Below, piece by piece: positions 41,682 to 56,264 of a DNA stretch of 64,000 bases (its first letter is position 1; each line of letters begins with the position of its first letter). The position numbers and the translations under genes are program-made. The notes below the pieces were generated by a model that saw nothing but the letters and a program-made list of their open reading frames with translations, did no database searches and was not told where the DNA came from. This stretch comes from an uncultured Clostridia bacterium (lineage in GTDB: Bacteria; Bacillota; Clostridia; TANB77; CAG-508): contig CAKPHG010000004.1 in assembly GCA_934157035.1 (NCBI GenBank), positions 53,594-117,593 on the forward strand, read 5' to 3'.

Positions 41682-44414
41682 TTATTCGTCTTTTGTTGTA
41701 TTTATTCTTAATAATTTAAATATTTCTACTATAACAAGTGGAGCAAATACAAGTGCTATTGTTTCAATTATATTAGCTGTTGGTAAAACTGGTATACTAA
41801 ATACTTCTCTTAAGAATGGTACAAATAGTATTACCAACATAAGTGCTGCTGACACTGCAATAGCTAATAATAAATATTTATTAGTTAAAGCTTTTGTTTT
41901 AAATATTGATTTTTTGTTATTTCTTACGTTAAATACATGAACAAGTTCTGATAGTGCTAAAACTGTAAATGCCATTGTTTGGCCTATTTCTACTTTTATT
42001 TCTTGCACACTTAATCCTTCTATTTGTGGAAGTTCAGCTTCTGGTGTAGCTAATCCTATAATAAATGCTGCAAGTGTTAATAATCCTATCATTACTCCTT
42101 GGTATATTACTCTCCATGTCATTCCTTTTGTAAATATTCCTTTTCCGCTTTTTAAAGGCTTTCTTTCCATTATATCTTCTTCTGCTGGATCTACTGCTAG
42201 TGCTAAAGCTGGAAGTGAATCTGTTACTAAGTTTATCCATAATATATGAATTGGAAGTAATGGAACTATTAGGCTAACATCTATTCCAAATTTGCTTGAA
42301 AGCCATGGTGTAATTAATATTGCTACAAATAGAATAATAATTTCTCCTACGTTGCTAGATAATAAATATTGTATTGCTTTTAATATATTGTCATATATAC
42401 GTCTTCCTTCTTCTACTGCTGACACTACTGTTGCAAAGTTATCGTCTGTTAGTATTACATCTGAAGCTTCTTTTGCAACATCTGTTCCTACCATTCCCAT
42501 ACTACAGCCAATATCTGCTGTTTTTAGTGCTGGTGCATCATTTACACCATCACCTGTCATTGCAACTATTTCTCCATTTTTTTGCCATGCTTTTACTATT
42601 CTTACTTTATGCTCTGGTGATACTCTTGCATATACACTATATTTTCTAACATTTTGCTCTAATTCTTCTTGACTCATTTCTTCAAGTTCTGCACCTGTTA
42701 TTGCTTCTTCATCATTTTCCAAAATGCCTAATTGTCTTGCTATTGCTATTGCTGTTATTTTATGATCTCCTGTAATCATAACTGTTTTTATTCCTGCAGT
42801 TTTACATTTTTCTACCGCTTTTCTTGCTTCTTCTCTTGGTGGATCTATCATTCCAACCATTCCAACAAATATCAAATCATTTTCTATATTTTTCATCTCT
42901 TCTTTTGTTGGCATATGATCCATTTCTTTATAAGCCATTCCAAGTACTCTTAAAGCATCTTGTGCCATCGCTTCGTTATTTCTTGCTATTGTTTCTTTAT
43001 ATTCTTCTAGGTTGTTTTCTATTTTTCCATCTAAAATGTAAGCTTTACATCTTGCAAGTACTTCGTCTATTCCACCTTTTGTATAAATAAAATATGTTTT
43101 TCCAGCTTTATGAACTGTTGTCATTAATTTTCTATCTGAATCAAATGGAATTTCCTCTACTCTTGGATATTCTTCATATAAAGCTGGTGGAAAATCTAAC
43201 TCAAATCCCATATCTACTAATGCTGTTTCTGTTGGATCTCCCGTTAAAGTGTTGTCTGAAGCTACTTTTGTATCATTGCAAAGCATGCTTATATATACTA
43301 ATTTTTTTAATTCTTCATTGTTATTGTTTACTTTTGCATTTTCTACATTTTGTAAAATATCATCGTAAAATACTTTTTGTACTGTCATTTTGTTTTGTGT
43401 TAATGTTCCTGTTTTGTCTGAACATATAACTGTTGCACTACCCAAAGTTTCTACTGCAGGAAGTTTTTTTACAATAGCGTTTTTCTTTACCATTCTTTGA
43501 ACACCTATTGCTAAAACTATTGTTGAAACTGCTGCTAAGCCTTCTGGTATAGCTGCTACCGCCAAACTTACAGCTGTCATAAACATTTCTAATGCATCTT
43601 TTCCTATAGCTATTCCTATAATAAAAATAACTATACATATAAGAACTGCTGCTATTCCTAATGTTTTTCCTAATTTATTTAATTTTTCTTGAAGTGGTGT
43701 ATCTGTGCTTTCTACACCAGTTATTATTTCTGCTATTTTACCTACTTCTGTATTCATTCCTGTTGCTACTACTATTGCTTTTCCTCTACCATAAGTAATT
43801 AAACTAGATGAAAATAACATATTACTTCTATCGCCAATACCTATTTTTTCTTCTTCAATGGTATCTGTATTTTTTTCTACTGGAACAGATTCTCCTGTTA
43901 ATGAAGATTCTTGAGCTTTTAAATTTGCTCCTTCACAAATTCTTAAATCTGCTGGTACATAGTCTCCTGTATCTAGTACAACTATATCTCCTGGCACTAA
44001 TTCCTTTGAAGGTAATACTTCCATTTTTCCATTTCTTATTACTTTCGCTGCATGAGAACTTAATTTTTGCAAAGCCTCTAAAGACTTTTCTGCCTTGTTT
44101 TCTTGTGCTACACCTATTATTGCATTTACTATTACAACTATTAAAATTATAATTGTATCTGTAATTCCTTCTCCTTGTGCAATTCCTACAGCACCTGAAA
44201 TTATTGCTGCAATAATTAAAATTATAATCATGAAATCTTTAAATTGTTCTAGAAATTTAATTATTAAACTTTTCTTTTTCTTAGCTTTTAATTCATTTAA
44301 ACCATATTTTTCTCTTGCTTTTTCTACTTGTTCTTTGTTTAATCCATTTTCGATATTTGTTTCTAATTCTTTTTCTGTTTGTTCAATACTTTTGTTAAAC
44401 CAATTTTCTTCCAA
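41682..44414 (-). CDS. P-type cation-transporting ATPase (type IIA/IIB-like; substrate Ca2+ or Mn2+)
   Basis: 910 aa; CSDKTGTLTQN phosphorylation motif, TGDGVNDAPALK hinge, 10 TM helices; TTG start after AAGGAG RBS. Confidence 0.9.
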   Translation of the reverse strand: MEENWFNKSIEQTEKELETNIENGLNKEQVEKAREKYGLNELKAKKKKSLIIKFLEQFKDFMIIILIIAAIISGAVGIAQGEGITDTIIILIVVIVNAIIGVAQENKAEKSLEALQKLSSHAAKVIRNGKMEVLPSKELVPGDIVVLDTGDYVPADLRICEGANLKAQESSLTGESVPVEKNTDTIEEEKIGIGDRSNMLFSSSLITYGRGKAIVVATGMNTEVGKIAEIITGVESTDTPLQEKLNKLGKTLGIAAVLICIVIFIIGIAIGKDALEMFMTAVSLAVAAIPEGLAAVSTIVLAIGVQRMVKKNAIVKKLPAVETLGSATVICSDKTGTLTQNKMTVQKVFYDDILQNVENAKVNNNNEELKKLVYISMLCNDTKVASDNTLTGDPTETALVDMGFELDFPPALYEEYPRVEEIPFDSDRKLMTTVHKAGKTYFIYTKGGIDEVLARCKAYILDGKIENNLEEYKETIARNNEAMAQDALRVLGMAYKEMDHMPTKEEMKNIENDLIFVGMVGMIDPPREEARKAVEKCKTAGIKTVMITGDHKITAIAIARQLGILENDEEAITGAELEEMSQEELEQNVRKYSVYARVSPEHKVRIVKAWQKNGEIVAMTGDGVNDAPALKTADIGCSMGMVGTDVAKEASDVILTDDNFATVVSAVEEGRRIYDNILKAIQYLLSSNVGEIIILFVAILITPWLSSKFGIDVSLIVPLLPIHILWINLVTDSLPALALAVDPAEEDIMERKPLKSGKGIFTKGMTWRVIYQGVMIGLLTLAAFIIGLATPEAELPQIEGLSVQEIKVEIGQTMAFTVLALSELVHVFNVRNNKKSIFKTKALTNKYLLLAIAVSAALMLVILFVPFLREVFSIPVLPTANIIETIALVFAPLVIVEIFKLLRINTTKDE

Positions 44415-44544
44415 TTTTCATTTCTCCTTTTTATTATTTTTTCCATTTTTTTGTTTAATAGTCCATTTTTTCTAAACTTTCTTCATCTCCTTTTAACATT
44501 TTTCTCAAAAGTACATTATACTTTTTCGAATAATTACCTTTTAG

Positions 44545-44690
44545 TAAAATAAAAAATAAGACTCCTAAAGAAAACACTACATTTACATGTACTCCTTTCT
44601 TTAAAAGTCTTGCTTACCTTAAAGGTTACTAACCATGCATTTTCTGCCGAGATGTTGATTAGTAGTTTATAAGCTACTCCCCTTTAAATT
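44545..44690 (-). ncRNA. candidate yybP-ykoY (Mn2+) riboswitch with terminator-type expression platform in the P-type ATPase leader
   Basis: Minus strand: AAAGGGGAGUAGC followed by hairpin AGUAGCUUAUAAACUACU, then GCAAGAC shared with a terminator hairpin (plus 44558..44611) and a U-run. Assignment from memory of the GGGGAGUAG consensus; not verified. Confidence 0.35.
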
Positions 44691-44747
44691 TTTTATTATT
44701 TTACCATTTGTTTTTTATTTTGGCAAGTCATTTTTACTTTTTTTACT

Positions 44748-44775
44748 TGAAAGTATTTTTTATATGTTATATAAT
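44748..44775 (+). promoter_or_regulatory. promoter (TTGAAA-16-TATAAT) for the tRNA-Gly-like gene
   Basis: TTGAAA 44748..44753, TATAAT 44770..44775, about 16 nt before the tRNA 5' end. Confidence 0.45.
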
Positions 44776-44791
44776 ATGTTTAGTTTCATTT

Positions 44792-44865
<74 letters not shown>

Positions 44866-44985
44866 TTTAAAATCAACTTACGGACTTAATTGTTCGTAAG
44901 TTTTTTTATAATAGATAATATCAAAAAAGAGGAAAAAATTATAAAAACGATAAAGACAATATCATCTAAACGTTGTCTTTATCAT

Positions 44986-46397
44986 TTAATTATTATCTGT
45001 TAATTTATTAAACAAATCCTTAAATATTTCGTTTGCATTTAAATAATTAACAAATTTAATTCTATGCCTGTTTTCGGTTAGTTTAAAAGTATTATCAGTA
45101 TTTATAAGTGGACAACTAACATCCATTGTATTAAACCAATTTTTATTTATCATATATGCTATTACACTAATATCCCATAGTGGCCATCTTTTAGTAGGAC
45201 CATAGGCTCTATTATAAAATCTATAGCATAAATAATCACATAATTCGTTTTTGCCTTTTAATTCACTTTCTAATTCGTATATTGATGTCATTAGATTCGA
45301 TGTTATAGGAGAACAAGGCATAACAGTAAGTTTAACTTTCGATTCAAAAACTACTTTTACCGCTTCTACATCTTGATCAAAATTGAAATCTTTATTAGGT
45401 CCAAATAAAAAATTACTTCCTAACCATATAATTTCTATCTTATCAACAATATCTGGGTTAGATTTTAATGCTAATGCTATATTTGTTAAACACCCTATTG
45501 CTAATATATATGTTTTTTTATTTTTGTTAGCAATTTCAATTATTTTATTAATGGCTGAATTTTTTTCATTATATCCATTTTTTAAATAATCACGGGAACC
45601 TTTATATATAAGTGATTTATCCTTTAATCCTAATAAATCAAATACTTTACATGCTTCATTGTAACTGGCATCTATAGAATCAGAAACTGTTCCTTGCCAT
45701 TTTTCATGTCTAAAAGGTGCTATTGTTATAGCGTCAATGTTGAATATTTCTTTGCTTTTTAGTAAATAAGATAATGCGAATTGGTCATCTGCTTCATTAT
45801 ATGTATCTGTATTCAAAATTACATTATATTTTTTTCACAGATTAAACTATATATTTCTTTCCATCCGTTTACTATTGGAATATTTAAATTATATTTCTCA
45901 TTATATCTTGTTTTCATTAAAAAACATTCTATTCCTGCGTTTAATATGTATTTACATTTATCTGCTTCATCATCAAACATAATATCAATACTATTTTCAA
46001 TACATTCTGGACTTTTATCTCTGCTTTTTGTAAATACTAATTTATCATATTTTATACCTTTTTCATTTAACCAATTTATAGTTACTAATTCATGGTTTTT
46101 AAAAAAATAATTTGATCTGTGTGTTATTAAAAATATCTCATTTTCTTCATATAATTTATTAATATATTTCTTAGCTCCTTCTATTAAATCAAATTTTTCA
46201 GCCATTCTATCCATATTATTGCGGATAAAATCTTCTATTTCCTCTGGGCTCCAATCAAACATTCCTTCAGTAATGTGTTTAGCTTTTTTGTTTATAATTC
46301 CTTTATTTCTTTTATTTTTATCTTCTTTTTCAAATTCTTCTAAAAATGTTTTATCTAAATCTGCTATTACATTATCAATATCTATTCCAATTCTCAT
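44986..46397 (-). pseudogene. 5'(3')-deoxyribonucleotidase-nucleoside hydrolase fusion gene interrupted by a -1/+1 frameshift in an A7 tract (ORFs 45819..46397 and 44986..45816)
   Basis: Upstream ORF = HAD dNT (MRIGIDIDNV...). Downstream ORF = IU-nucleoside hydrolase starting in mid-motif (NTDTYNEADDQFAL). The intact paralog 54834..56264 reads through the same junction (…KNYKKEKFNVILDTDTYNECDD). The shifted frame across plus 45829..45835 (T7) reconstructs KKYNVILNTDTYNE. Confidence 0.7.
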
Positions 46398-46579
46398 ATA
46401 ACAACCTCCAGTATAAAATTAAGTTTTAATCTATAAAAATTATACATTATATTACAATTTTTTTCCACACTTCCTTGAAAAAATCAGCATGAGTATTTCT
46501 ATATAGGTAATTTAGCAAATAAAATACCACTCCTAATACTTCAAACACATAATACAACTTATTTTAAACCTCTTTTTTA

Positions 46580-46608
46580 TTTACATAATAGCCAAAATGT
46601 GGTATAAT
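46580..46608 (+). promoter_or_regulatory. promoter TTTACA-17-TGgTATAAT (extended -10) for the GC-rich orphan gene
   Basis: TTTACA 46580..46585, TATAAT 46603..46608, TG at -15/-14. Shares AAAATGTGGTAyAAT with promoters at 61191..61219 and 60742..60770. Confidence 0.5.
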
Positions 46609-46695
46609 ATTTTTGGTTGATTTCTCAGAAAATGAGGAAAAATTTCTTAGTTAGTATTTGTTGCATTATAATTAAAGCATAAGGAGGAAAACAAT

Positions 46696-47748
46696 ATGCA
46701 ATATCAAGAAAGCGTCAGAATTCAAAGATGTGGTAACCGTGCAGGAGATACCTATGGACTGATTGAACTTCAACATATGGCAGATCCTAAATCAGTAATT
46801 GTGTCTCTTTGTGGGCAAAGGCTTTATCCGAAAAAATTCAATATCTTCGGTTGGCCGATATTTACAAAGGAAATCTGTGACCTTTTTGACTGGAAAGAGA
46901 ACTCTCTTGAAAGAATATATGGAAAAGATTACAGACTTACAGCATTAGTTACGTATGATAGTGCAAATGTCCACATCGACCCGCATGCAGTTAATTCTTT
47001 GGATGGAATTAAAAACGGAATCAAAGACCTTGAGTCTTTGAATAGATTACTCAGAGATAGAGTGATTTATGATAAGCTTTTAGGTAGGGGCAAACTCAAC
47101 AAGTATGTTATTTTTGGTAGATATAGCCTTGATGAATTTGCCCAGGTATGGACACTGGGTGAGCAATATGAAATCCCTGAAATGCCTATCGTTTGTACTC
47201 AAATCGGGTTCTATAGAGCTTACAATAAAGTAAAGCCTGATGCACTTGTATCTTGGGAAGGCAGATGCACTATTCCTTCTGAAGATGATAGTTGTCCTTG
47301 GTGTACCAAAAAATTTACTATTGAAGATGTAAGAAAAGGAAGATTTGACACTATCAATGGTAAAGTCGCCCATAGCGAATGTGCAAAGCAGTATGAACAT
47401 GAAAGGGAGATTAACAAAATTATTCATCGAATTATGGAATTTATCTATGAAGATGGATTAACCTTTGAACTTCTTCCTAATGGCTATTGTAGTCAACCGT
47501 GTTATGCTCATAAGCCTTGGTTTTTGTGTCATACTCCTGATGGTGACATCGAAATCGGCTGGAGAAAAAGAGTTATTTCTATTGAATGGAAAGATAATTT
47601 CAAACCTTTCGATATGAGTATTTTTGACAGCGAAGATGTTACTAAATGGGAGCGTGGCATTCACGCGTGGGGAAATGACAAAGCATATGAGTATATTAAA
47701 AAGGTAAAGGAATTTGTTAATCCTAAACCTGAAGAGAAAAAATCGTAA
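46696..47748 (+). CDS. hypothetical 350-aa protein, compositionally foreign (~40 % GC), with CxxC...HxxC putative zinc-binding element
   Basis: Strong AAGGAGG RBS; GC visibly higher than flanks; CPWC(x29)HSEC and further conserved Cys/His; no family recognised; own GC-rich hairpin terminator. Confidence 0.6.
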   Translation: MQYQESVRIQRCGNRAGDTYGLIELQHMADPKSVIVSLCGQRLYPKKFNIFGWPIFTKEICDLFDWKENSLERIYGKDYRLTALVTYDSANVHIDPHAVNSLDGIKNGIKDLESLNRLLRDRVIYDKLLGRGKLNKYVIFGRYSLDEFAQVWTLGEQYEIPEMPIVCTQIGFYRAYNKVKPDALVSWEGRCTIPSEDDSCPWCTKKFTIEDVRKGRFDTINGKVAHSECAKQYEHEREINKIIHRIMEFIYEDGLTFELLPNGYCSQPCYAHKPWFLCHTPDGDIEIGWRKRVISIEWKDNFKPFDMSIFDSEDVTKWERGIHAWGNDKAYEYIKKVKEFVNPKPEEKKS

Positions 47749-47775
47749 AAGCAACATTACTAAGAAATTCAGCTG

Positions 47776-47820
47776 AAAAAGGCCACTAGATAATTCTAGT
47801 GGCCTTGACCTTTGGTTTTA
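47776..47820 (+). terminator. GC-rich hairpin terminator (GGCCACTAGA-taat-TCTAGTGGCC)
   Basis: Perfect 10-bp GC-rich stem at 47781..47804 directly after the stop of 46696..47748. Confidence 0.55.
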
Positions 47821-47868
47821 TAATGTTATACCATTTAAATATAATATATTTTTATATTTTCTATTTTT

Positions 47869-48420
47869 TCACCTATTTTCATAATTTCGAATGCTAATTT
47901 CTTTTATCATTTCTCCTGGATAATCATATAATGCTAATCTATCAAATTCTAAATAGAATGGCTTAAAACTATCCTTAATTGTGTTTTTCAATTCTAAAAT
48001 CTTATCATAATCTTTATCTATATGTAGAGTTAAATGAAACGTAAATTTCTCTGGATTATATTTTTCTTTTGGAAATTTATTAAAAAAGATTCTTTGTAAT
48101 TCTTTTATTTTCTCATTATCTTCTATTGCTAAATATAAAACAAAACTCTCATTTCTACATTTCATTATCTTAACATCATTTACTTTAACCTTTATCTTAC
48201 CCATCTCTATTTTTTGAGCTATATTTATTATTTCATTTTCATTTTCTTTGTTAGTTGCAAAAATAGTAAAGTGATATGGTAAATTATCAATATTGTATCT
48301 ATTCTCATCAATACCATAAGGAACTTTGCAAGTCTTTATTTGTATATTGTTCATTAACTTTTCTATCTTATTTAATTCTGTTTTATTCATAAAACTTATC
48401 ATCGTAATTCTCTTACTCAT
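47869..48420 (-). CDS. 2H phosphoesterase superfamily protein (LigT/ThpR-like 2'-5' RNA ligase / cyclic phosphodiesterase)
   Basis: Two HxT/S motifs: PYHFTIFAT and FHLTLHID, spaced ~80 aa apart in a ~180-aa protein. Confidence 0.65.
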   Translation of the reverse strand: MSKRITMISFMNKTELNKIEKLMNNIQIKTCKVPYGIDENRYNIDNLPYHFTIFATNKENENEIINIAQKIEMGKIKVKVNDVKIMKCRNESFVLYLAIEDNEKIKELQRIFFNKFPKEKYNPEKFTFHLTLHIDKDYDKILELKNTIKDSFKPFYLEFDRLALYDYPGEMIKEISIRNYENR

Positions 48421-48795
48421 TTAACACCACTACTTTCACCAACTTTATTTATATTAGTTTCTTTCTATATTTTTAATAAAAAAATCATCTTCTTCATTAA
48501 AGTGTATATCTATATCAAGACTCTTTTCATGCTTAGATGCAGCACTAGTTAGTTTATCTTTTATATTTTAAAGTATCGTCTATATATTCCTATCTTTATG
48601 TATATTATCCAAACTTTTACTAATTGTCAATAGTTTTAGTATTGCTCTTTTATGAAAAATGTTTATCATATAAATGAAATACATTATTTCCTATATTTAC
48701 TAATTAGTGAAGGAATTATCCTCTCACTTTTGGTTTTAACATATATAACAAGAAAACATAAAAAACGACAATGCCGATTAAGCATTGTCGTTTTT

Positions 48796-49996
48796 TTATG
48801 GTTTTTCTAGTTTATACATTATTCTAGCATATATAGGTATAGAAATAGTAACTATCAATAATAATAATTTAAAGTATATAACATTATTCAACAAGCCTAC
48901 CAATAGCATTAGTATAAATCCTATTATTCTTCCTATTTCCATAAAACCTTCTGTGAAAGTATGATATTCTACTAACCATTTTTCTATATTATTTTCTTTA
49001 ACTGCATCATCTGATTTAATTTTAAACATAACTTCTAAAATATATACAGTTATGCTATATGTAAAATTATAAATTATTAATGTTGTTTTGCTTATATTTA
49101 ATATTAATCCTAATACACCTAACACTACTAATGTAGCACAAAAAATCAATAATCTTTTTGCATATTTTTTTTTGATATAATTTATTAAATAAATATAGTG
49201 ATATCATAGAAAATATAGAGAATATAGTTGTTAATATTCCAAAATTAAATGATGTTTTAAAAGTCATAATTGTTATTATAACTACTAATACTCGTATTGT
49301 ATCCATCATAATTCCATATAAAAAGGCTAATTTATAAACTTTATTTATATTCTCTTTTTGTTTGCTAGATAAACTGGTTGTATATTTTTTTAAACTATAT
49401 TTTTGAATTTTATCGTCAATAACAAATTTGTTAGTATCTATTTGTAATGACATTATTATTTGGAATAAAGTTAATACAAATATATATATTGCTATGTTTC
49501 CAAAAGATGTTAATTCTATAGAGGTTCCTAATATTATAGGAACTAATATATTGATAAATTTACTTAAAATTCTTTTTGTTGTCATATATTTTTTTCGGTT
49601 TTCATTATCGACTATTTGTGTATTCATTACATCATGTGTTGACTAGTATAAAGCTTCTGCAATGCCATAAAAGATTGCAAAAATTATAAAATATTGACTT
49701 ATTTTATCTTTGAACAATACTATTAATAATATATAAATCGATTTGATTATAATACCAAATCGATAAATTGAAACTTTTTTTTTAGGTTTGCTTTTGATTA
49801 TATTACCTAATAAAATACTTCCTACACCTAATAGTAAATATAAAATTATATAAAATGTTGAAACTTGTATTATATTTTCATTAGAAATTTGTAAAAAATA
49901 TGCTACTAAAAAAGTTTCGCCAAATAAATTTATAATACCGTTGGTTAGGTCACATGCCATTAATGACTTTGCACTTCTATCTAATTTAGTTTTCAT
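48796..49996 (-). pseudogene. MFS transporter pseudogene broken into three frames (49643..49996, 49067..49627, 48796..49149); paralog of 25778..27100
   Basis: Fragments align consecutively to the intact MFS (e.g. KKVSIYRFGIIIKSIYILLIVLFKDKI vs KIKLYRFGTIIKALYIFMIIVMGDKI); frames switch and overlap. Confidence 0.7.
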
Positions 49997-50093
49997 TTTT
50001 ATTTTCCTTTCAAATAAAATTCCATTTTATTATACATTATATTACAAATTTCTTCCATTCCCTTTTGAAAATATATAGGAATGAGAATTATTA

Positions 50094-51350
50094 TTACTTA
50101 TATTCTTTTAATTGTATTTCAGTTATTTTTTTATTTAACAACATGTTCATTATAAAATCCGAGATAATATAACATATCCAAACTCCATATATACCGCAGA
50201 CTTTACTTAACAAATATGCTAAAATTAGTCTTAATCCTCCGCTTATAAATAAACTTAATTTTGAAATATATTTAAATTCTTTCATTGCTCGTAATATACT
50301 AGTATAATAATGATAAAATCCCATTAAAATACAATCTAATATAACAAATAATAATAGTTTATAACCTATTATTAAACTTTCTTTTTCAATTAAAAAAAAT
50401 GGTAAAGAAATTAACATTGCAACCCCAACGATTGAAGTAGTTATATATACTATTTTTTTATTTATATTATTTATAACTTTAGTTGTCTCGTTAACTTTTT
50501 CATTATCATTACTTCCAATTGATGTTGCAACCATAGTTTGTGTACCTATACCTGTTCCATGTAAGAAATTATTCATTAAATCTAAAAATTGCATTACAAT
50601 TATATGTGCAGCATATTGAAGCGTACCAATCCTAGACATAATAACATTTAAAATAAAATTACTTCCTCTTTTAAAGATTCTTTCATAAATATTATATCGT
50701 ATTAAATCAAATTCCTCTTTTGCTATACTTTTTACAAATTTAATTTTTACTAATCTTTTTGAATAATAAATCAATACTACCATATTTATTATTTCTACCA
50801 ATACAGTTGAAATCGCTACACCTGTAATTCCAAAACCAAGTTTAACAAAAATAAAATCAAGAATGACATTAATAAAAAAACAAAGCATTCTGATATTAAA
50901 CATTCTTTTACTATTTCCTAATGTTCTTTGATACCCACCTAATATTGTTAGAATTGTATTAGGCATAACTCCAATCAGTCTTATATATAAATATACTAAA
51001 CCAATTTCATTAACTAGGAACATTTTTGGAATAAATTTACTTATACTTAATGTTAAAATTATACAAATTAAACTACAAATTACAGCAATTATTAAAGCTG
51101 TTCCTACAGCATTTTTTGCCTGGTCTTTATCGTTTTTTCCTAATAACCTAGCCACTATGACATTATTAGAAACATTTATTGATTGTAATACCAAATACAT
51201 AAAATCTATAACTGTTCCCATTGCTCCAACAGATGCTATTATTTCAGAACCAAACTGTGATATCATAAATGTATCTGTCATAGTAATTAAAACACCAACT
51301 ATACATTCAAATCCAGATGGGAGTGCTAAATCTAAATACTCTTTTTTCAT
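50094..51350 (-). CDS. MATE-family efflux transporter
   Basis: 418 aa, 12 TM, MATE-like N-terminal motif (LALPSGFECIVGVLITMTDTFMISQFG). Confidence 0.85.
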   Translation of the reverse strand: MKKEYLDLALPSGFECIVGVLITMTDTFMISQFGSEIIASVGAMGTVIDFMYLVLQSINVSNNVIVARLLGKNDKDQAKNAVGTALIIAVICSLICIILTLSISKFIPKMFLVNEIGLVYLYIRLIGVMPNTILTILGGYQRTLGNSKRMFNIRMLCFFINVILDFIFVKLGFGITGVAISTVLVEIINMVVLIYYSKRLVKIKFVKSIAKEEFDLIRYNIYERIFKRGSNFILNVIMSRIGTLQYAAHIIVMQFLDLMNNFLHGTGIGTQTMVATSIGSNDNEKVNETTKVINNINKKIVYITTSIVGVAMLISLPFFLIEKESLIIGYKLLLFVILDCILMGFYHYYTSILRAMKEFKYISKLSLFISGGLRLILAYLLSKVCGIYGVWICYIISDFIMNMLLNKKITEIQLKEYK

Positions 51351-53689: not shown

Positions 53690-54298
53690 TTACAAGTTTT
53701 CTTTTATTTCTGGAAATAAATCATATAAATTATATCCTAATAAATTATCAAAGTATTCTTTTAATTTATATGTTTCCTTTACATGATATTGTGTATTTGA
53801 ATATGCACCTCTTCTAATGATAATATCAATTAATCTTTTATCTATTGTATATACCTTTTGACCTTGAGGACACATTAAGTCACATAAGTTTATTATTTTT
53901 TCTTCTATTGTATATTTATGATTTTTTATAAAGTCTGTCAAAAATGGATTATCTTCTGGTTTTGGACCTCCCCCTGCAGTGCAAGTAATATCATTATTTA
54001 AATATGAATGTGTTAGGCATATATTACAATATTCCTCATCATACCCTTTGTCTTTTAAATAATTATATCCTCTCATAACATGTCCTTGTGATTCCCCATT
54101 ATATTTTCCTATATCGTGCACATAACCTAAAGCTATTGTTTTATCAACATCTACTTTATATCCTTTTTCTTCTAACGCTTTAGCAATTCTTCCAGCACTA
54201 TTTCCAACATATAAACAATGTTCTATCCATCTATCGTCTTTTGTATATTTTCTTTCCTCTTCTAATAAATTTCTTGCTCCTTCACTTGTTAATTTCAT
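53690..54298 (-). CDS. HD-domain phosphohydrolase
   Basis: H...HD metal-binding pattern (IEHCLYV...YVHDIGK); 4-nt overlap with upstream gene. Confidence 0.7.
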   Translation of the reverse strand: MKLTSEGARNLLEEERKYTKDDRWIEHCLYVGNSAGRIAKALEEKGYKVDVDKTIALGYVHDIGKYNGESQGHVMRGYNYLKDKGYDEEYCNICLTHSYLNNDITCTAGGGPKPEDNPFLTDFIKNHKYTIEEKIINLCDLMCPQGQKVYTIDKRLIDIIIRRGAYSNTQYHVKETYKLKEYFDNLLGYNLYDLFPEIKENL

Positions 54299-54831
54299 AG
54301 TTCATACTCCTTTATTTCACAATTTTCTTGACCGCTCACATTTAGTAACATCCCATCTTCTGGCATTTTTTCAAAATAAAATTGCATAGCCCTTGCTACT
54401 GCTCCATGAGTAACTAGTAAAATATTTTTATTATAATATTTTTCTTTTATATCATTTAAAAACGAATGAGTCCTTTTAAATAAATCTGGCAATGTCTCCA
54501 AACCTTCAACAATGTTTTTTGAATAATAGTTATAATACTCTTTAAAATAATAATCATCAATAATTGTATTAGTCAATATTCCTCCATCTCTTTCGATAAG
54601 CCTGTCATCATAAATTACTGGAATATTGTTTGCATTTATTATTTTACATGTATGCTTTGTTCTTTTCATTGGTGAACATATAATTAAATCTATATTCAAT
54701 TCCTTAATTTTTCCTCTTATATTTTCAGCTTGTTTTATTCCAATCTCATTTATATCTTCATTATATCTACAATTATATTTATTTTCTTTATTGCAATTCG
54801 TTTGTCCGTGTCTTACTATATATATCTTCAT
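54295..54831 (-). CDS. histidine phosphatase family (PGAM/CobC-like) protein
   Basis: MKIYIVRHGQTNCN = RHG catalytic motif; second His region VTHGAVARA. Confidence 0.75.
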   Translation of the reverse strand: MKIYIVRHGQTNCNKENKYNCRYNEDINEIGIKQAENIRGKIKELNIDLIICSPMKRTKHTCKIINANNIPVIYDDRLIERDGGILTNTIIDDYYFKEYYNYYSKNIVEGLETLPDLFKRTHSFLNDIKEKYYNKNILLVTHGAVARAMQFYFEKMPEDGMLLNVSGQENCEIKEYEL

Positions 54832-54833
54832 AC

Positions 54834-56264
54834 TTACTCTCCTAATTTTTCAAATAAATCATTATAAACACTATTTGCATCTATATAAGTTACCATTGTT
54901 ATATTATGCCTATTAGTTGTTATTTTATATGATGTATCTTCTTTTATATTTGGACAATTTATATCTTTACTTGTAAACCATTTTTTATTTATCATATAAG
55001 CAATTACAGAAATATCCCATATAATTCTTCTTTCTTGATTTCCATGATAGCTATCGTTATAAAATCTACTTATTAAATAGTTGCATAGTTCACTTTTATC
55101 TTTCAAGTGATGATTTAATTCATATATTGATGTTCGTAAATTAGATGCTACATTTTTGCAAGGTATTACTGTTAATTTTACTTTAGACTCAAATACTGTT
55201 CTTACTGCTTCAACATCTTGTCTAAAATTGAATTCTCTATTATTATCTTGTAATAAGCTATGTCCGCCTAGCCAAATTACTTCTATTTTTTCAATTATTT
55301 TAGGCTCTTTCTTTATTGCTAGCGCAATATTCGTAATTGCCCCAACTGCTAATATATATGTTTTTTCATTTTTTAATGCTATTTCAATTATTTTATTAAC
55401 CGCTTCATTTTCTTCATTATATCCATTTTGCAAATAATCTGTTGAACCTTTAAATACTTTATCTGTTGTATCAAAATTTAACCAATTACATATTTTTAAT
55501 ATTTCATTATAGCTTAATTCTTGGCTTTCCTCAGTAGTCACATTTTTTACTTTATGCGAAAATGGTGCAACTGTAATTGCTTCTATATTAAATACATCTT
55601 GTGATTTTAACATATATGAAAGTGCAAATTGATCGTCACATTCGTTATATGTATCTGTATCTAAAATTACATTGAACTTTTCTTTTTTATAATTTTTAAT
55701 GTACTCATATATTTCTTTCCAATCTTTAACTCTAGTTAAGTTTTCTTCTTCTCTATTGTAAGGCTTGTCCTTTATAAGTGTAGTTATTCCGCTTTCTACA
55801 CAATTTTTACAAATGCTAATTGAATCATCTATCATTACTTCTATATTATTTTCAATACATTTTTTAGATTTTTGCATTTTGTCACGAGCATCTGTAAAAA
55901 TTAGTTTATCATAATATATATTATTTTCTTGTAGCCATTCTTTTGTCATATTATAAGGATCTGAATAATCTCCATTATCTCTTCCAGTAATTATATATAT
56001 GTTATGACCATCTTCTTTTAGTTTATCTATATATTCTTTTGCTCCTTCAATTACTTTTAAGTTTTTAACGATTCTTTCTATATTTTCTTTATAAAATGTT
56101 TCATCTTCCTCTTTGCTCCAGTCAAACATACCATTTCTGATATATTTAGCATTTGGATTTATTATTCCACTATTTCTTAATTCTTTATCATGTTCTATAT
56201 ATTCCTTTAATAGTTCTTCATCAAAATTTGAAATAACGTTATCTATATCTATTCCTATGTTCAT
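54834..56264 (-). CDS. intact fusion: N-terminal HAD 5'(3')-deoxyribonucleotidase + C-terminal inosine-uridine-type nucleoside hydrolase
   Basis: N-term MNIGIDIDNV (HAD motif I), NT5C-like body; C-term ILDTDTYNECDDQFAL (nucleoside hydrolase DxDxxxDD Ca2+ motif) and IUNH-like remainder. 3 nt from next gene (operon). Confidence 0.8.
   Translation of the reverse strand: MNIGIDIDNVISNFDEELLKEYIEHDKELRNSGIINPNAKYIRNGMFDWSKEEDETFYKENIERIVKNLKVIEGAKEYIDKLKEDGHNIYIITGRDNGDYSDPYNMTKEWLQENNIYYDKLIFTDARDKMQKSKKCIENNIEVMIDDSISICKNCVESGITTLIKDKPYNREEENLTRVKDWKEIYEYIKNYKKEKFNVILDTDTYNECDDQFALSYMLKSQDVFNIEAITVAPFSHKVKNVTTEESQELSYNEILKICNWLNFDTTDKVFKGSTDYLQNGYNEENEAVNKIIEIALKNEKTYILAVGAITNIALAIKKEPKIIEKIEVIWLGGHSLLQDNNREFNFRQDVEAVRTVFESKVKLTVIPCKNVASNLRTSIYELNHHLKDKSELCNYLISRFYNDSYHGNQERRIIWDISVIAYMINKKWFTSKDINCPNIKEDTSYKITTNRHNITMVTYIDANSVYNDLFEKLGE

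Follow-up and report, generated by a model that had tools for sequence, protein, structure and literature searches.

Why does the gene for a two-domain enzyme appear at this locus as two closely spaced open reading frames, and is the run of seven A residues at the break the cause of the split? In the window, by which we mean the whole 64,000-nucleotide stretch of DNA analysed, the first-pass annotation had placed a homopolymer frameshift that would divide a fusion of a deoxynucleotidase (dNT) with a nucleoside hydrolase (NH), and it had offered recent pseudogenisation, a phase-variable switch and a sequencing error as explanations. When coordinates and translations were re-read, the ORF ends and starts and the position of the A7 run claimed there proved exact. 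The features at the break are these:

45819..46397, minus strand: upstream ORF, 192 aa, complete 5'(3')-deoxyribonucleotidase (NT5C/HAD) domain with two foreign end residues (..EKN-IM*)
44986..45816, minus strand: downstream ORF, 276 aa, TTG start, MNTDTYNEADD, nucleoside hydrolase IU_nuc_hydro
45829..45835, minus strand: A7 run (T7 on the plus strand), of the same length as in intact alleles
45827..45832, minus strand: deletion scar, one AAAT instead of the AAATAAAT of intact alleles (alignment of the window and the split copies L003-L009 against L001, L002 and L074)
45811..45813, minus strand: AAT (Asn) in place of GAT (Asp197), the first Asp of the D-T-D-x5-D-D fingerprint

The 192-aa ORF ends in ...EIYSLICEKNIM* at a TAA stop (45819-45821), and the hydrolase ORF begins mid-motif, its TTG lying 2 nt past that stop. 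Pfam aligns residues 3-186 of the upstream ORF with positions 4-174 of the 180 in the NT5C profile (PF06941, E=4e-12), and it matches the downstream ORF to IU_nuc_hydro (PF01156, E=4.6e-25, gathering score 34.2), a profile entered at position 5. A HAD motif I of the DxDxV type (G-I-D-I-D-N-V) stands near the N-terminus of the 192-aa ORF, and D6 and D8 of the dNT motif are invariant in the family alignment. Adding one A to A7 yields a 470-aa product, ...ICEKKYNVILNTDTYNE..., which aligns end-to-end and colinearly over the junction with the intact paralog at 54834..56264(-) (53% identity, E=1e-171). As both Pfam domains are also found in that paralog, the earlier description of a split fusion copy, made whole by a frame shift at A7, is borne out. 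Fusions of NT5C with IU_nuc_hydro comprise more than 2000 database proteins at E<=1e-10; most of the matches listed are 470-480 aa long with both Pfam domains, and one source names a member 'inosine-uridine nucleoside N-ribohydrolase/uncharacterized HAD superfamily protein'. The restored window gene has the same architecture as these fusions of gut Firmicutes and differs from them in that its domains lie in separate frames and its fingerprint reads N-T-D rather than D-T-D. To our knowledge, the dNT-NH fusion family is widespread and biochemically uncharacterised.

Is the homopolymer itself the mutated site? Comparison with other strains, which the first-pass annotation had proposed as a check, uncovered intact alleles, L074 and L075, at the same chromosomal locus. 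L074, located via the neighbouring gene orf350, encodes the intact 471-aa protein, has the same neighbours as in the window (ATPase, orf350, LigT and MatE) and matches window positions 43200..51248 over 8053 nt; the flanks are 100% identical, and all differences in these 8 kb, a 4-nt gap and five substitutions, fall inside the gene. Where L074 and about 10 intact relatives read GTGAAAAAAATAAATATAATG, A7 included, the window reads GTGAAAAAAAT----ATAATG; across the junction DNA alignment, intact copies have CTGTGAAAAAAATAAATATAATG against CTGTGAAAAAAAT----ATAATG in the window, and the gene measures 1416 nt in intact alleles and 1412 nt here. Because the intact same-locus allele L074 has A7 too, the mechanism in the title of the first-pass annotation, an A7 homopolymer frameshift, is wrong, and the true lesion is a loss of four nucleotides, AAAT, 3' of the run, which within the AAAT repeat is not placeable more exactly. 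As the alignments present it, the lesion is a short-repeat deletion directly 3' of an unchanged homopolymer. Tracts of this kind are commonplace, with 91 A or T runs of exactly seven in a window of 27% GC.

The repaired protein, used as a search query, leads to the same site. The search returned an intact 471-aa relative at 96% identity (...SLICEKNKYNVILDTDTYNEADD; cluster of 972 members), one residue longer than the 470-aa A8 repair, together with several shorter hydrolase-only proteins. Judged by this comparison, the ancestral protein is EKNKYNVIL (471 aa), not EKKYNVIL. The AAAT.AAAT direct repeat has thus been cut from two units to one, for which slipped-strand mispairing during replication is the most likely route; the repeat encodes the two-residue linker (Asn-Lys) that leads from the last nucleotidase helix to the first hydrolase strand. 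AF2 modelling of the intact protein at 96% identity (mean pLDDT 91) puts the last dNT helix at residues 179-189 and beta1 of the hydrolase at residues 192-198 (YNVILDT), with a two-residue linker before beta1; since the linker sits between these two elements, the deletion falls exactly within it.

How common is the split form? Among NCBI, ENA and Logan records, 17 contigs carry the exact 192-aa ORF and 20 the exact 276-aa ORF; the records derive from separate samples, Hadza and other gut metagenomes among them, and from more than one assembler (megahit k141, SPAdes NODE, Logan); the exact ORFs always stand in the ATPase/orf350/LigT context. P0123 and P0124, near-identical variants of the 192-aa ORF that share the EKNIM* end, account for 14 further contigs. 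Contigs with an identical orf350 carry the split form in about 16 cases and an intact form in 3 (L074; L075 and one similar place), therefore the two forms constitute a polymorphism within one species. L075, the third allele at the locus, is intact and has the linker ATATGTAGAAAATATAAGTATAATG with no A run. The split allele segregates within one species of uncultured low-GC gut Firmicutes beside intact alleles of the same locus. Around each of the close species-representative loci L010-L024, the DNA examined lacks the window's flanking genes, and a tblastx synteny survey found gene contexts that differ between species. The gene used to locate L074, orf350 (46696..47748, plus strand), encodes 350 aa, is divergent from the split gene and has no Pfam match; its protein is 98.6-100% identical across the same-species contigs compared.

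The split copies are further united by private substitutions. At the junction, seven split copies were examined (L003-L007, L009 and the window); every one has the G->A change at 45813, which is confined to them, no intact copy compared carrying A. A second private base, C at column 668 of the alignment, marks the split copies compared there (window, L005, L006 and L009). No recombinant or revertant haplotype was seen among the split and intact copies aligned. This complete linkage of indel and SNPs therefore indicates a single origin of the split allele, not frequent reversible slippage. The affected residue is an Asp in all 60 motif-bearing loci of other species, and Asp197 is invariant in 30/30 aligned homologues. 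Across the 88 columns that are invariant in these 30 homologues, the window allele departs at just two, D197N and V284I; these lie in the hydrolase half, and V284I is also found in some intact relatives. The dNT half has zero differences from L074, and no invariant dNT column is altered.

We thus put at roughly 0.85 the probability that the window gene is a real, heritable, young frameshift allele of a bifunctional dNT-nucleoside hydrolase gene. Recent pseudogenisation, among the options of the first-pass annotation, is the one backed by the evidence. In kind, the split is an ordinary frameshift allele of an already known sort. Like other frameshift pseudogene or split-gene polymorphisms that arise through the loss of a short direct repeat, it combines a lost 4-nt unit and a premature stop with intact alleles in the same species, a downstream substitution of an invariant residue and independent lesions in relatives. 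There is no essential difference from such polymorphisms; the break falls exactly in the two-residue linker, and the upstream domain survives complete.

The five substitutions that separate the window from L074 lie within about 260 nt (gene positions 588-849). Because substitutions are confined to the gene, 6.6 kb of flank are identical and most of the variable sites are shared with other alleles, the pattern of variation indicates short recombination tracts with other alleles inside the gene; many of the variant bases in the junction SNP clusters are common to divergent, mobile alleles. Between L075 and window positions 45733..45909, a mosaic SNP tract is tight around the domain junction. DGR-like mutagenesis was considered as a source of the SNP cluster and rejected, as the changes are not adenine-specific.

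What becomes of the two halves? The beta1 strand, whose position we took from the AF2 model and a review (PMC8910321), matters here, for it is in the beta1-alpha1 region that the Asp fingerprint of nucleoside hydrolases is found, where it forms the Ca2+ site (PMC8910321). The family fingerprint, D-T-D-T-Y-N-E-x-D-D, is two residues longer than the canonical DxDxxxDD type. The window hydrolase ORF starts at residue 196, so that Y192-I195 of beta1 are gone; held against the fingerprint, the window allele shows N-T-D for D-T-D in an ORF without Y192-I195. The top Foldseek matches of the hydrolase half are RihA, YeiK and IU-NH (target-normalised TM 0.70-0.77), and phmmer against PDB sequences aligned only the middle of the hydrolase, the N-terminal motif lying outside the alignment. 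The upstream ORF retains every dNT secondary-structure element of the AF2 model, and it is preceded by its own translation signal:

46405..46409, minus strand: GGAGG ribosome-binding site, 7 nt 5' of the dNT ATG (direct reading)

Direct reading 5' of the hydrolase TTG revealed no equivalent Shine-Dalgarno sequence. A stand-alone dNT is to be expected because the promoter region of its own, the Shine-Dalgarno sequence and a structurally complete domain are all retained, and the upstream ORF probably still yields a 192-aa deoxynucleotidase. The hydrolase half is most likely a non-functional pseudogene, because it has no Shine-Dalgarno sequence, begins at a TTG, is missing most of beta1 and carries Asp->Asn; from sequence and model, we infer a loss of hydrolase function.

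Could both halves instead be active separately, in a functional gene fission where the hydrolase is reinitiated at the TTG by coupling and selection favours the uncoupling? With stop and TTG only 2 nt apart, some termination-reinitiation is conceivable, both ORFs are intact in every split copy, and a hydrolase-only gene has been kept in other lineages (P0009, P0010 and L024). Those hydrolase-only genes, however, all keep K-Y-N-V-I-L-D (beta1) and the Asp, neither of which is whole in the window ORF, and the window ORF has no Shine-Dalgarno sequence. No split copy has lost the open 276-codon hydrolase frame, but this says little about selection because the split copies have barely diverged (by 5 nt or fewer). 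We regard such a fission as very unlikely.

A phase-variable contingency switch, in which the hydrolase half would be toggled reversibly by slipped-strand events at the A run or the linker repeat, strikes us as no more credible than fission. A cytoplasmic metabolic enzyme is an atypical contingency gene. The idea draws on the A-richness of the linker, on true homopolymer frameshifts at the same spot elsewhere (A8->A7 in L080/L081; A6->A7 in L066) and on the coexistence of split and intact alleles within one species, and the locus resembles SSR phase variation in having a repeat-tract frameshift with on and off alleles in a population. Unlike the tracts of contingency loci, the one here is too short, was destroyed by the event and is linked to SNPs, in a gene for a housekeeping-type enzyme. 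A reduction of AAAT from two units to one leaves nothing to re-expand, and seven or eight A residues are few against the typical 9-nt onset of evident A/T slippage (PMC1088944). Moreover, the indel is wholly linked to private SNPs and the intact haplotypes L074 and L075 differ, which implies one old event. The switch proposed in the first-pass annotation is thus not supported, given the complete SNP linkage and the reduction of the repeat to one unit.

Might the split instead be bridged during expression? Programmed recoding, by -1 frameshifting on A_AAA_AAU or by A7->A8 transcriptional slippage, would give some full-length fusion. The two frames overlap only at 45822-45834, between the NH-frame TGA (45835-45837) and the zero-frame TAA (45819-45821), and because these stops bound the overlap A_AAA_AAU is the only possible slip site. 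This slippery heptamer lies at 45828-45834 in the zero frame, within or abutting the overlap; the sole window of frame overlap thus coincides with A7, and a -1 shift there would give ...EKKYNVIL..., with beta1 restored. The fit to the zero-frame pattern X_XXZ_ZZN is shared with the -1 frameshift heptamers of dnaX and IS3/IS911. Unlike those sites, the window has no hairpin, pseudoknot or upstream SD-like element, its final base is U and not G, and its two-ORF layout is unconserved across homologues. A search for a stimulatory RNA fold in 106 nt (the run and its 3' side) gave -11.6 kcal/mol, with z=-0.73 against shuffles, and direct reading upstream of the heptamer found no 5' SD-like (GGAGG-like) stimulator. 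Heptamers without a stimulator reach only 2-10 times the background of about 0.055% in E. coli (PMC4066793).

Transcriptional slippage invites comparison with the poly(A)-slippage 'pseudo-pseudogenes' (Baranov et al. 2005, PMC1088944; endosymbiont poly(A) tracts), where likewise an A run lies in the frame overlap and the ORF would be made whole by a single A added in the mRNA. In contrast to those, the run here is 7 nt rather than about 9 or more, its length has not been mutated and the arrangement is unconserved; selection against A/T slippage typically shows at a run length of nine (PMC1088944), and A7 falls below the typical slippage-prone length of 9 or more. About 55/60 related loci are in frame through the linker, the intact alleles keep A7 without need of it, and a rescued protein would retain D197N. 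Frameshifting, for which the first-pass annotation had suggested a reporter test, thus finds itself opposed, as a programmed process, by the unconserved split architecture, by same-locus L075 without an A run and by the lack of a predicted 3' structure, and we consider it exceedingly improbable. Any -1 slip on A7 would be incidental and at a sub-percent level, from which trace full-length enzyme could result.

A sequencing or assembly error in the homopolymer, with a true sequence of A8 (or A6 plus other changes) and an intact gene, agrees with the restoration of the full-length frame by one added A and with the fact that homopolymer miscalls are common on some platforms, but we give it next to no chance and take this option of the first-pass annotation to be excluded, since the same split was assembled independently on 17-20 or more contigs from various samples and assemblers, what sets the split allele apart from the intact one is a 4-nt block beside an A7 identical in both, and the A8 protein would fall one residue short of every close intact relative.

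With the young frameshift allele as the preferred reading, what kind of gene copy has been broken? The copy belongs to a compact unit that recurs in other species:

44860..46484, minus strand: module of about 1.6 kb (promoter region, gene, terminator), with blastn boundaries recurring at 46484 and 44859/44860
44875-44902: terminator-like hairpin between tRNA-Gly(TCC) and the hydrolase ORF
44792..44865, plus strand: tRNA-Gly(TCC) gene, convergent with the hydrolase ORF

Besides the gene, the module takes in about 90 nt on the upstream side and about 125 nt on the downstream side, and it is found at 88-96% identity in other species and contexts. Elsewhere (L001, L002, L082-L085), it is accompanied by a large serine recombinase with TnpV and a NikA-like gene, by a relaxase or by a DNA methylase, which suggests that the module is carried on mobile elements. 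Its downstream boundary lies about 6 nt inside the tRNA-Gly 3' end, and the L018 copy adjoins the same tRNA; this boundary may be a trace of tRNA-associated integration or capture.

Lesions have arisen independently in relatives of this gene. A genuine homopolymer frameshift, A8->A7, is present at the same linker in L080/L081, and L082 and 6 similar places have a 1-nt deletion in another A run. A nonsense codon interrupts the dNT-NH gene of L085, P0130 has a separate frameshift just past KYN, and L067-L070 are truncated gene copies. In another species, L066 (4560..4610) shows A6->A7 in the linker of the other paralog type (..AATTATAAAAAAAGATAAA..), a true homopolymer frameshift whose insertion separates the two domains, dNT and NH, at the corresponding point. 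Most of the nucleotidase domain is deleted in P0008-P0010, P0071, P0103 and L024, which keep beta1 and the Asp. Related lineages thus show repeated breaks in the lysine-coding, A-rich linker and in further A runs of the gene, and the window split is one case of the ongoing decay of a dispensable, horizontally mobile gene copy. By its distribution and lesions, the gene copy behaves as mobile and dispensable and decays often, preferentially at A runs.

Does the linker break more often than drift would explain? Because there is a stand-alone dNT here, NH-only genes elsewhere and A-run frameshifts in L080 and L066, one may read the A-rich two-residue dNT-NH linker as a recurrent break point at which selection, beyond drift, uncouples the two activities or sheds one. 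We think this unlikely, if somewhat less so than a functional fission or a switch; if true, these genes would form a natural series of ongoing gene fission in a mobile nucleotide-catabolism gene of gut Firmicutes.

The neighbourhood of the split gene shows other breaks. At window positions 48796..49996 (-), three ORFs (117, 186 and 117 aa, with a weak MFS_1 match) correspond to one 402-aa membrane protein in L013 (32..1240). Two lesions appear to break this membrane gene, an in-frame stop (49643-49645) and, close to an A9 run (49164-49172), a frameshift; independent contigs (L003, L073-L076) yield the same fragments. L077, from the same species, has neither the LigT-like gene nor the fragmented membrane gene, a loss of about 2 kb relative to window 47976..49981, and its first 117 nt do not align. 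The stretch from the Ca-ATPase to MatE seems to be variable and decaying.

How does the cell fare with a broken copy? The window holds a second fusion gene:

54834..56264, minus strand: paralogous dNT-NH fusion, 476 aa, intact, NT5C and IU_nuc_hydro (Pfam)

Lying 9 kb away, this paralog probably covers the function. A histidine-phosphatase (His_Phos_1) gene begins directly at its stop and runs into the first bases of an HD-domain gene. The set of paralog, His_Phos_1 and HD genes (window 53690..56264, minus strand) looks like a small nucleotide-dephosphorylation/catabolism operon, and L021 and L022 likewise have HD homologues 3' of their fusion genes.

Annotation should treat the pair of ORFs as one frameshifted fusion gene, its NH part being a pseudogene, and not as two genes; the split is not an assembly error to be 'polished', and the lesion is not attributable to the homopolymer. 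For the biology of these gut bacteria, the locus presents a mobile, duplicated nucleotide-catabolism gene that has been inactivated repeatedly and independently in related organisms, often at lysine-rich A runs. This repeated inactivation illustrates gene decay channelled by AT-rich coding sequence.
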